A stretch of 7,388 bases of DNA, taken from the IMG/VR virus record IMGVR_UViG_2663762839_000012, one strand, 5' to 3'. A program made the position numbers and the translations under genes. The DNA comes from a virus. Its lineage: Duplodnaviria > Heunggongvirae > Uroviricota > Caudoviricetes. The notes below the pieces were generated by a model. That model ran no database searches and had not been told where the DNA came from. It saw nothing but the letters and a program-made list of their open reading frames with translations. Shown here in pieces: positions 6,179 to 7,388 of this stretch (positions within the stretch are counted from its first letter, which is position 1; each line of letters opens with the position of its first letter).

Positions 6179-6384
6179 AATGTTTTCCCATATTCAGTGT
6201 TGCTGATTTGTATTATCTGAAGTTGCTTTTACGTTAATTTGACGCAGATCAATTAATACGATACCTGCGTCATAATTGATTATTTCTCGTGGTTTGATGG
6301 CGTACACACATGTTGTGATAAACCTTATATAGATGATAATCATTATCATTTCGTGGGTCCTTTCCGGCGATCCGACCGGTTACG

Positions 6385-6396
6385 GGGCGGCGACCT
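6385..6396. other. cosN: 12-nt lambda cohesive-end sequence GGGCGGCGACCT (terminase nicking site), with lambda right-end homology and the cosQ region upstream (about 6230-6384)
   Basis: GGGCGGCGACCT at 6385-6396 is followed by CGCGGGTTTTCGCTATTTATGAAAATTTTCCGG..., which matches the start of the lambda genome as I recall it. The preceding ...GATGATAATCATTATCATTTCGTGGGTCCTTTCCGGCGATCCGACCGGTTACG matches the lambda right end. Nu1 starts 189 bp downstream, as in lambda (191). Confidence 0.9.
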
Positions 6397-6436
6397 CGCG
6401 GGTTTTCGCTATTTATGAAAATTTTCCGGTTTAAGG

Positions 6437-6553
6437 CGTTTCCGTTCTTCTTCGTCGTAACTTAATGTTTTTATTTAAAATACCCCCTGAAAAGAAAGGA
6501 AGCGACAGGTGCTGAAAACGAACTTTTGGGCCTCTGTCGTTTCCTTTCTCTGT
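6437..6553. promoter_or_regulatory. cosB: terminase small-subunit binding elements R3, R2 and R1, with an IHF site (I1) between R3 and R2
   Basis: R3-like CGTTTCCGTTCTTCTTCG (6437-6454); AT-rich IHF-like segment CTTAATGTTTTTATTTAAAATACC (about 6461-6485); inverted R2-like GAAAGGAAGCGACAG (6494-6508); R1-like CGTTTCCTTTCTCTG (6538-6552). Spacing mirrors lambda cosB. Confidence 0.75.
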
Positions 6554-6573
6554 TTTGGGCCGTGGAATGAACA

Positions 6574-7119
6574 ATGGAAGTCAACAAAAAGCAGCTGGCT
6601 GACATTTTCGGTGCGAGTATCCGTACCATTCAGAACTGGCAGGAGCAGGGAATGCCCGTTCTGCGAGGCGGTGGCAAGGGTAATGAGGTGCTTTATGACT
6701 CTGCCGCCGTTATAAAATGGTATGCCGAAAGGGATGCTGAAATTGAGAACGAAAAGCTGCGCCGGGAAGTTGAAGAACTGCGGCAGGCCAGCGAGACAGA
6801 TCTCCAGCCAGGGACTATTGAGTACGAACGCCATCGACTTACGCGTGCGCAGGCCGACGCACAGGAACTGAAGAATGCCAGAGACTCAGCTGAAGTGGTG
6901 GAAACCGCATTCTGTACTTTCGTGCTGTCGCGGATCGCAGGTGAAATTGCCAGTATTCTCGACGGGATCCCCCTGTCGGTGCAGCGGCGTTTTCCGGAAC
7001 TGGAAAACCGACATGTTGATTTCCTGAAACGGGATATCATCAAAGCCATGAACAAAGCAGCCGCGCTGGATGAACTGATACCGGGGTTGCTGAGTGAATA
7101 TATCGAACAGTCAGGTTAA
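6574..7119 (+). CDS. Nu1: Terminase small subunit (181 aa), lambda gpNu1
   Basis: Translation MEVNKKQLADIFGASIRTIQNWQEQGMPVLRGGGKGNEVLYDSAAVIKWYAERDAEIENEKLRREVEELRQ...LLSEYIEQSG is essentially identical to lambda Nu1 as recalled, with an N-terminal winged-HTH DNA-binding region. Stop TAA at 7117-7119. Confidence 0.97.
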   Translation: MEVNKKQLADIFGASIRTIQNWQEQGMPVLRGGGKGNEVLYDSAAVIKWYAERDAEIENEKLRREVEELRQASETDLQPGTIEYERHRLTRAQADAQELKNARDSAEVVETAFCTFVLSRIAGEIASILDGIPLSVQRRFPELENRHVDFLKRDIIKAMNKAAALDELIPGLLSEYIEQSG

Positions 7120-7388
7120 CAGGCTGCGGCATTTTGTCCGCGCCGGGCTTCGCTCACTGTTCAGGCCGGAGCCACAGACCGCCGTTGAATGGGCGGATGC
7201 CAATTACTATCTCCCGAAAGAATCCGCATACCAGGAAGGGCGCTGGGAAACACTGCCCTTTCAGCGGGCCATCATGAATGCGATGGGCAGCGACTACATC
7301 CGTGAGGTGAATGTGGTGAAGTCTGCCCGTGTTGGTTATTCCAAAATGCTGCTGGGTGTTTATGCCTACTTCATAGAGCATAAGCAGC
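7094..7388 (+). CDS. A: Terminase large subunit, lambda gpA, N-terminal 98 codons only (continues beyond the window edge)
   Basis: GTG at 7094 overlaps the Nu1 3' end by 26 nt, as in lambda. Translation (M)NISNSQVNRLRHFVRAGLRSLFRPEPQTAVEWADANYYLPKESAYQEGRWETLPFQRAIMNAMGSDYIREVNVVKSARVGYSKMLLGVYAYFIEHKQ matches the lambda gpA N-terminus. It is absent from the ORF track because it has no stop inside the window. Confidence 0.95.
   Translation, partial: MNISNSQVNRLRHFVRAGLRSLFRPEPQTAVEWADANYYLPKESAYQEGRWETLPFQRAIMNAMGSDYIREVNVVKSARVGYSKMLLGVYAYFIEHKQ

Follow-up and report, generated by a model that had tools for sequence, protein, structure and literature searches.

A lambda-type cos site and Nu1 gene, intact in sequence, in a decayed DLP12-like prophage remnant next to aceB of Escherichia coli

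The IMG/VR virus record IMGVR_UViG_2663762839_000012 comprises 7,388 nucleotides (nt) of DNA, which we refer to at its full length as the window; nothing is visible 3' of position 7388. From position 3228 onward, sequence comparison identified the DNA as lambdoid prophage, and its right-hand segment corresponds to the packaging-initiation module of a lambda-specificity prophage, that is, the cosQ-cosN-I2-cosB site, the terminase small-subunit gene Nu1 and the start of the large-subunit gene A. We hold with good confidence that this module lies in a cryptic remnant with the origin and mechanism proposed below. Judged from its sequence, the locus is an ordinary, long-known kind of DLP12-like cryptic lambdoid remnant with a sequence-intact lambda-specificity cos and Nu1, and its only locus-specific oddity appears to be a unique junction with the region upstream of aceB in the Escherichia coli chromosome.

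The initial annotation had described the right-hand segment as nearly identical to phage lambda, and alignment bore this out. Window positions 6044 to 7388 were 95.3% identical to the lambda prophage copy in DE3, a megablast comparison of 6187 to 7388 with lambda gave 96.3% identity, and positions 6385 to 7388 aligned to bases 1 to 1004 of phage 434 at 98.3%. We placed the cos subsites using the annotation of the phage 434 record together with the coordinates of the Feiss laboratory, in which R3 is bp 50 to 65, I2 is about bp 18 to 50 and the complete cos spans lambda 48446 to 182 (PMC9026076, PMC4856287). Position 6385 was taken as the first base of the cohesive end, since the alignment sets it opposite base 1 of 434 virion DNA. 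The resulting features are as follows.

6328 to 6566, plus strand: complete lambda-specificity cos, 239 bp, equivalent to lambda 48446 to 182
6355 to 6361: cosQ, GGGTCCT, invariant in all aligned relatives
6383 to 6398: cosN, 16 bp, identical to lambda, DE3, 434 and DLP12
6385 to 6396: 12-nt cohesive end of cosN, GGGCGGCGACCT
about 6402 to 6433: I2, identical to lambda
6434 to 6449: R3, 16 of 16 positions identical to lambda
6458 to 6470: I1, 13 of 13 positions identical to 434
6492 to 6507: R2, inverted, 15 of 16 positions identical, with an A-to-G change at 6502
6535 to 6550: R1, 16 of 16 positions identical

The cosQ entry was placed by the lambda coordinate of that site. Homology of L014 starts at cosQ, which is a conserved 7-bp site (PMC4669245). 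The cosB elements follow in the order R3-I1-R2-R1, with R2 inverted, and lie at the right distance from cosN. The alignments contained no insertion or deletion between cosQ and Nu1, which matters because the spacing between cosN and cosB is critical; a 7-bp insertion relative to lambda, at about 6319 to 6325, lies outside the functional cos. The initial annotation had made its proposal depend on the absence of substantial divergence from lambda in cosN, cosB and Nu1, and we found none, since all subsites are identical to lambda or 434 save for the single R2 base and Nu1 differs at two residues. On these grounds the cos would still be a competent terminase substrate.

We also considered whether G6502 was a private variant of the window, and this was ruled out, as four IMG/VR contigs carry it. 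Among the carriers is L032, a 55-kb IMG/VR contig with full-length Nu1 (181 amino acids [aa]) and A (641 aa). The cos type itself is very common: 3,968 of 5,426 complete E. coli genomes (73%) had a match to 80% or more of the 239 bp, in up to eight places per genome.

The terminase genes follow cos.

6574 to 7119, plus strand: gpNu1, terminase small subunit (TerS), full length at 181 aa (PF07471, Phage_Nu1; 336 bits, profile positions 1 to 164 of 164)
7094 to 7388, plus strand: 5' end of A, terminase large subunit, 98 codons plus 1 nt, running past the end of the window

The predicted Nu1 protein was identical to lambda Nu1 at 179 of 181 residues, the only changes being T75A and I132L, and it likewise matched 434 at 179 of 181. 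The recognition helix of TerS comprises residues 17 to 24 and its wing residues 31 to 39 (PMC9026076); both are unaltered here, because only T75A and I132L differ from lambda. Exactly the same Nu1 protein was found in 46,895 blocks of public assemblies, typically beside complete lambda-type head and tail modules. For A, all 98 visible residues were identical to gpA of lambda and 434, and these 98 of 641 codons (15%) are the part of the gene in the window, with the ATPase and nuclease domains (PF05876 and PF20454) encoded beyond it. The earlier description of an intact cos and terminase therefore needs dividing: cos and Nu1 are intact in sequence, and an intact A was not observed, as 98 of 641 codons are visible. 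The visible portion cannot separate an intact gene from a stump, because the dead A stump of DLP12 runs to codon 103 and the window to codon 98.

To the left of cos lies a late region that is, by comparison with its relatives, a truncated and decayed module of the Shiga toxin (Stx)-phage type.

3235 to 3504, plus strand: DUF826 gene, 89 aa, leftmost of the prophage genes still present (PF05696, 126.9 bits)
3576 to 3581: scar of a 756-bp deletion at a 6-bp microhomology, GGGTAT; L015 bases 10348 to 11103 are missing
3582 to 3972, plus strand: remnant of a glycoside hydrolase family 24 (GH24; P21/T4-type) lysozyme gene (PF00959), longest open reading frame (ORF) 3610 to 3972
4063 to 4095, plus strand: terminator-like hairpin after the lysozyme remnant, 13-bp stem and T-run
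4129 to 4457, plus strand: two small hydrophobic ORFs between lysozyme and Rz, of 60 aa (4129 to 4311) and 43 aa (4326 to 4457)
4454 to 4927, plus strand: Rz spanin, 157 aa (PF03245, 168.9 bits)
4680 to 4865, plus strand: Rz1, 61 aa, embedded in Rz (PF06085, 69.9 bits)
4951 to 5175, plus strand: 74-aa ORF, a called gene also in L015 and L035
5520 to 5846, plus strand: TonB_C-domain protein, 108 aa, an accessory gene just upstream of cos (PF03544, 54.9 bits)
5978 to 6178, minus strand: DUF3950 (YlcI/YnfO family) gene, 66 aa (PF13132)

This region matched the late region of the E. coli prophage represented by L015 and L017, in which the gene order is DUF1378, DUF826, holin, DUF1327, lysozyme, 60-aa ORF, 43-aa ORF, Rz/Rz1, 74-aa ORF, TonB_C protein and DUF3950. 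Window positions 3228 to 3581 were 100% identical to it, and 3582 to 6073 matched L015 at 2,489 of 2,492 positions. The DUF826 gene was identical at the nucleotide level to that of L015 and others, and relatives place it between DUF1378 and the holin gene. The 756-bp deletion took out the holin gene, DUF1327 and the first 57 lysozyme codons. The full 177-aa L015 lysozyme contains the motif E35-8-D44-5-T50; the remnant begins at G47 and keeps T50 alone, so that by this comparison it lacks the catalytic residues E35 and D44 as well as the N-terminal membrane segment, and it matches PF00959 over profile positions 27 to 125 only. An exact-protein look-up with two versions of the truncated lysozyme returned no match. 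The same scar is present in IMG/VR contig L028, whose left flank is phage DNA rather than aceB, and the deletion is therefore natural and an event separate from the junction with the chromosome. Further left, where relatives carry DUF1378, a SASA esterase gene, tRNAs, a methylase gene and Q beyond DUF826, the window has chromosome. The loss of lytic functions by which cryptic lambdoid prophages are recognized is thus evident, with the holin gene gone, lysozyme E35 and D44 deleted and the aceB upstream region standing where relatives have Q and early genes.

These results agree with the initial annotation in two respects, namely that the late region is decayed and that the lysis genes are not those of lambda: the lysozyme is of the GH24 type, extra small ORFs are present, and Rz is 83% identical to lambda Rz at the nucleotide level and 108 of 154 residues identical in protein sequence. 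The 60-aa and 43-aa ORFs gave no Pfam family in a scan, and both are called as genes in L015, L017 and L035. We noted that both recur as conserved, called genes across many prophages of the Stx type or associated with Shigella. The Pfam scan of the 74-aa ORF also gave no match. The TonB_C-domain protein is probably a lipoprotein, because its N-terminal signal-like sequence ends in cysteine (LVMGC). A weak promoter-like site precedes its gene at 5460 to 5487; in a crude consensus scan, the number of promoter-like sites equaled that expected from shuffled sequence. Two plus-strand Chi sequences (GCTGGTGG) occur at 3857 to 3864 and 4495 to 4502, where 0.26 were expected and 2 of 200 shuffles reached two. 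Under the orientation rule for RecBCD, both are oriented for an enzyme entering from a break on their right, for example at a cut cos.

The initial annotation had proposed a recombination joint between about 4930 and 6230, and the BLAST mapping of mosaic boundaries that it called for confirmed that a joint exists while moving its position. Relative to lambda, no homology was found from 4906 to 6043, and it resumes at 6044, far to the right within the proposed interval. Relative to L015, which continues into an HNH/HK97-type terminase region, identity was about 99.9% up to 6073 and fell to 92 of 115 positions (80%) over 6074 to 6188, where the differences fall at every third base; after 6188 homology is gone. 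L019, in turn, was nearly identical to the window from 6024. The crossover from L015-like to lambda/L019-like sequence is accordingly placed at 6024 to 6073, inside the DUF3950 gene, because the L015 match ends at 6073 and the L019 match begins at 6024. The 66-aa DUF3950 protein was considered as a lineage marker and ruled out, as its differences from L015 are synonymous.

A second joint was located with relatives that have a different cosB and Nu1. L035 and L037 were 99.7% identical to the window from 3576 through cosQ and cosN to 6425, diverge where cosB starts, and encode a 168-aa Nu1. Against L035, L037 and L019, all with non-lambda cosB/Nu1, the joint falls at about 6426 to 6433, the boundary between cosN and cosB. 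This border is the classical boundary of the packaging-specificity module (PMC4669245), and one and the same cosQ-cosN is followed in nature by three or more types of cosB/Nu1, a pattern that points to natural swaps of packaging specificity at the cosN/cosB border. In L035 and L037, the non-lambda cosB at about 9580 to 9750 contains GGTTGTTGTT repeats and precedes the 168-aa Nu1. In L019, positions 13800 to 13950 contain the same cosQ-cosN followed by a cosB with CCGGACATG repeats and a 169-aa Nu1.

The same mosaic was found in IMG/VR contigs L029 (99.9% identity over 5134 to 7302) and L030 (99.8% over 4796 to 7086), so the combination is present elsewhere rather than new to this strain. These two contigs and L031 are nearly identical to the window and share the G variant of R2, yet they bear different, independent deletions. 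In L029 (2128 to 2589), a SASA esterase gene is fused to the 74-aa ORF. In L030 (1855 to 2684), a J/side-tail-fibre remnant has been joined onto the Nu1 C terminus, with tfa and the Pin invertase gene coming next. In L031 (1904 to 3273), a fusion at about Nu1 residue 131 leads into the final 320 residues of A. L032 carries the same R2 variant, and its terminase is intact. The differing deletions among sibling copies have the look of decay. In L034, L036 and L042 (at about 9916), which are insertion sequence (IS)-rich genomes of 4.5 to 4.7 Mb, a match of 99.8% to window positions 4711 to 6263 ends at 6263, about 90 bp before cosQ, with IS-family transposase genes slightly beyond; in these copies, cos and the terminase genes seem to have been lost.

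We then weighed whether the element could package itself. The initial annotation had allowed for packaging in cis if the head genes persist, and this we consider unlikely, because chromosome has taken the place of all prophage DNA upstream of DUF826, the part that in relatives holds Q and the late-promoter region; in addition, the terminator-like hairpin lies at 4063 to 4095 and promoter-like sites are at chance level. The same evidence bears on the alternative that the right arm is complete, with A, W, B, C, Nu3, D, E and onward to J intact, in which case the element would be a prophage with a deleted left arm that still cuts its own DNA and fills heads. An intact Nu1, whose exact sequence is so common beside complete lambda-type head and tail modules, would fit such an arm, as would the 98 visible A codons without a lesion and the full-length Nu1 and A of L032. 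Expression of late genes, however, needs pR' and the Q region, and these are replaced by chromosome; the terminator-like hairpin is present, the holin and lysozyme genes are destroyed, the closest relatives L030 and L031 bear terminase deletions, and A of DLP12 ends only five codons beyond the end of the window. On balance, a complete right arm seems unlikely to us, and a cryptic remnant remains the reading that we favor.

The left part of the window is chromosomal and joins the prophage just upstream of aceB.

1 to 3230: E. coli chromosome, 99.8% identical to strain 14EC033
5' of aceA in window coordinates: aceA-aceK spacer with repetitive extragenic palindromic (REP) elements, in the chromosomal part
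185 to 1489, minus strand: aceA
1519 to 3120, minus strand: aceB, with its ATG at 3120
3228 to 3230: chromosome/prophage junction, 3-bp exact overlap AAA, 110 bp before the aceB ATG
3228 onward: lambdoid prophage DNA

At the base level, exact identity to the chromosome stops at 3230 and exact identity to phage begins at 3228. A 12-bp microhomology at the junction, suggested by BLAST coordinates, was ruled out, since base-level comparison left 3 exact bp (9 of 12 in an imperfect match). Beyond the junction, prophage DNA stands in place of metA and of what would remain of the intergenic region between aceB and metA. A 35-mer spanning the junction had no match in GTDB representatives, IMG/VR or the Joint Genome Institute (JGI) metagenomes, an 81-bp junction query had no full-length match in the 5,426 complete E. 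coli genomes, and AceB neighborhoods showed only the normal metA-aceB order among the 24 longest contigs read. We also considered an insertion at 3230 in strains whose chromosomal match ends there, and ruled it out, as metA follows normally.

That the junction occurs in no other sequence searched raises the alternative of a chimeric assembly, in which a real aceBA contig was misjoined at 3228 to 3230 to a real prophage contig that is perhaps more complete. The exact overlap of only 3 bp and the phage DNA left of 3228 in L028, which has the same holin deletion, would agree with this. An overlap of 3 bp is nevertheless too short for a join by a k-mer assembler and is typical of illegitimate recombination, and the internal 756-bp deletion, confirmed independently by L028, proves the prophage defective in any case; the conclusions on cos and Nu1 would stand unchanged. 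We therefore regard a chimera as decidedly improbable. If the junction is real, the consequences may extend to the host: IclR and IHF act on aceBAK through regulatory sites upstream of aceB, so the regulation of the glyoxylate shunt may be altered in the strain carrying the junction, as may the linkage to metA. A literature search on the aceB promoter and the IclR operator sequence was uninformative.

Other observations concern the left edge of the window. The aceA-aceK spacer contains two repeats of the REP/bacterial interspersed mosaic element type, at 27 to 82 and 125 to 180, that are 89% identical to each other, and the REP-derived naRNA4 (RF02564; 81 to 158, minus strand, 81.8 bits) was the sole match in an Rfam scan. 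Base 1 of the window coincides with the first nucleotide of the aceK start codon, which suggests that the window was perhaps cut at annotated feature boundaries. Speculatively, the same might in that case hold for its right end, which lies 98 codons plus 1 nt into A; an A' pseudogene, for example, might stop there.

Taken together, the comparisons indicate that the remnant is a natural mosaic of an Stx-phage-type late region and a lambda-type cosB/Nu1/A module. At least two illegitimate deletions or rearrangements appear to have followed, one in which the aceB upstream region replaced everything left of DUF826 and one that removed the holin gene and the catalytic N terminus of lysozyme. Several points weigh against this account as a whole. 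G6502 in R2 occupies the position equivalent to R3 bp 55, at the edge of the segment contacted by TerS (bp 55 to 63), and could weaken terminase binding; transition mutations are reported to do less damage in R2 or R1 than they do in R3, and R2 is less critical than R3 (PMC9026076). The competence of cos is predicted from its sequence, and the lack of a promoter from a crude consensus scan and from missing parts. The rest of A, the head and tail genes and any second cos would lie past 7388. Finally, the aceB junction, seen in this one sequence, could be an assembly join.

Late genes of lambda depend on pR' and on Q antitermination acting in cis. By itself the element would thus be inert, with Nu1 and A lacking expression at the late-gene level, because it has lost Q and pR'/qut and has no functioning lysis cassette; even the Q protein of a helper would be unable to turn on the Nu1 and A of the remnant, because Q and pR' act in cis. 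For packaging to start, cosN and cosB are required, for it to end, cosQ and cosN, and helpers package passive prophages between two cos sites (PMC4669245). After the cut, terminase holds the cosB side and packages rightward, leaving the cosQ-side end exposed to nucleases (PMC4669245, PMC4856287). In the mechanism that we propose, the lambda-specificity terminase of a coresident or superinfecting phage would bind R3-I1-R2-R1 together with host IHF, nick cosN at 6384/6385 and 6396/6397, keep to the right-hand (cosB) side and move rightward along the DNA, away from aceBA. Cutting in trans by such a helper is plausible and has a precedent in DLP12 (PMC3945230), and resident or incoming lambda-specificity phages are common, this cos type occurring in 73% of complete E. 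coli genomes. A transducing particle would require another cosQ-cosN, oriented the same way, roughly one lambda genome length downstream. The likelier outcome would be that a double-strand break promotes recombination to the left of cos, a process already suggested for DLP12 (PMC3945230), accompanied by homologous exchange of cos, Nu1 and lysis DNA with incoming lambdoid phages. A bolder idea is that a lone, promoterless but competent cos beside core metabolic genes serves as a fixed launch site, either for repeated cutting and rightward packaging in one direction, the cos-phage analogue of lateral transduction, or as a hot spot where Chi directs recombination over the aceBA side; we rate this as a long shot.

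The finding in itself matters little, as it adds one more case of a very common state of the E. coli chromosome. Its interest is that cryptic lambdoid remnants store packaging and lysis modules that incoming phages can acquire (PMC3945230), and that the window displays the two classical exchange boundaries, in the DUF3950 gene and at the cosN/cosB border.

Among known systems, cos-type phage-inducible chromosomal islands (PICIs), such as EcCICFT073, and helper-packaged passive prophages resemble the locus in having a chromosomal lambda-like cosN that needs the terminase and capsids of a helper (PMC6739421, PMC9026076, PMC4669245). A chromosomal cos without autonomous functions does superficially recall the strategy of cos-type PICIs (PMC6739421, PMC9026076), and one might suppose that the element is such a satellite, evolved for mobilization by helpers rather than decaying. 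PICIs, however, hold int, regulatory and replication genes and Rpp, which redirects TerS to a PICI-specific site, whereas Pfam scans of all phage-side ORFs in the window revealed no integrase, AlpA, primase-replicase or Rpp-like gene, and returned only DUF826, lysozyme, Rz, Rz1, TonB_C, DUF3950 and Nu1. These are ordinary lambdoid late genes with random-looking deletions, and sibling copies carry different, unrelated ones, which is a pattern of decay. The cosB is of the phage lambda type, whereas for the PICI cos a "completely different sequence" has been proposed in the place of cosB. We therefore rejected a satellite as scarcely credible.

Related systems also include Qin-type remnants, in which Nu1 is joined to tail-fibre genes, tfa and pin. 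They are represented here by L030, which we take to resemble K-12 Qin and which belongs to the same lineage as the window and shares its R2 variant; the difference is that Nu1 of L030 is fused to a J/side-tail-fibre remnant, while Nu1 of the window is intact and A starts normally. Phages lambda and 434 share with the window identical cosQ, cosN, I2, R3, I1 and R1, an R2 matching at 15 of 16 positions, and overall nucleotide identities of 95 to 96% (lambda) and 98.3% (434). In contrast to these phages, the module here does not sit in a viable phage, and the sequence left of 6044 is unrelated to the bor-lambdap78-lambdap79 region of lambda.

The nearest counterpart is DLP12 of E. coli K-12, in which ylcI, cos, nohD and aaaD' (A') occur in the same order and orientation. 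Both elements have lysis genes, an opposite-strand DUF3950 gene, a lambda-type cosQ-cosN-cosB, a 181-aa Nu1 homologue and the 5' part of A; cosQ, cosN, R2 and R1 are at the same spacing, window positions 6033 to 7388 are 95.0% identical to DLP12 at the nucleotide level, and NohD and the Nu1 of the window are one residue apart. They differ in that Q (quuD), holin, lysozyme, Rz and bor are all still present in DLP12, whereas Q and holin are missing from the window and its lysozyme is nonfunctional. The region from the lysis genes to DUF3950 is of the Stx-phage type in the window (TonB_C gene and small ORFs) and of the bor-ybcV-ybcW type in DLP12, the element in the window occupies another chromosomal location, upstream of aceB, and A of DLP12 ends at codon 103, while that of the window is visible to codon 98. 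Lambda recombines with DLP12 at high frequency, 10 of 19 junctions adjoining cos (De Paepe et al., PMC3945230), and the R, Rz and nu1 genes of DLP12 function in lambda after recombination (PMC3945230).

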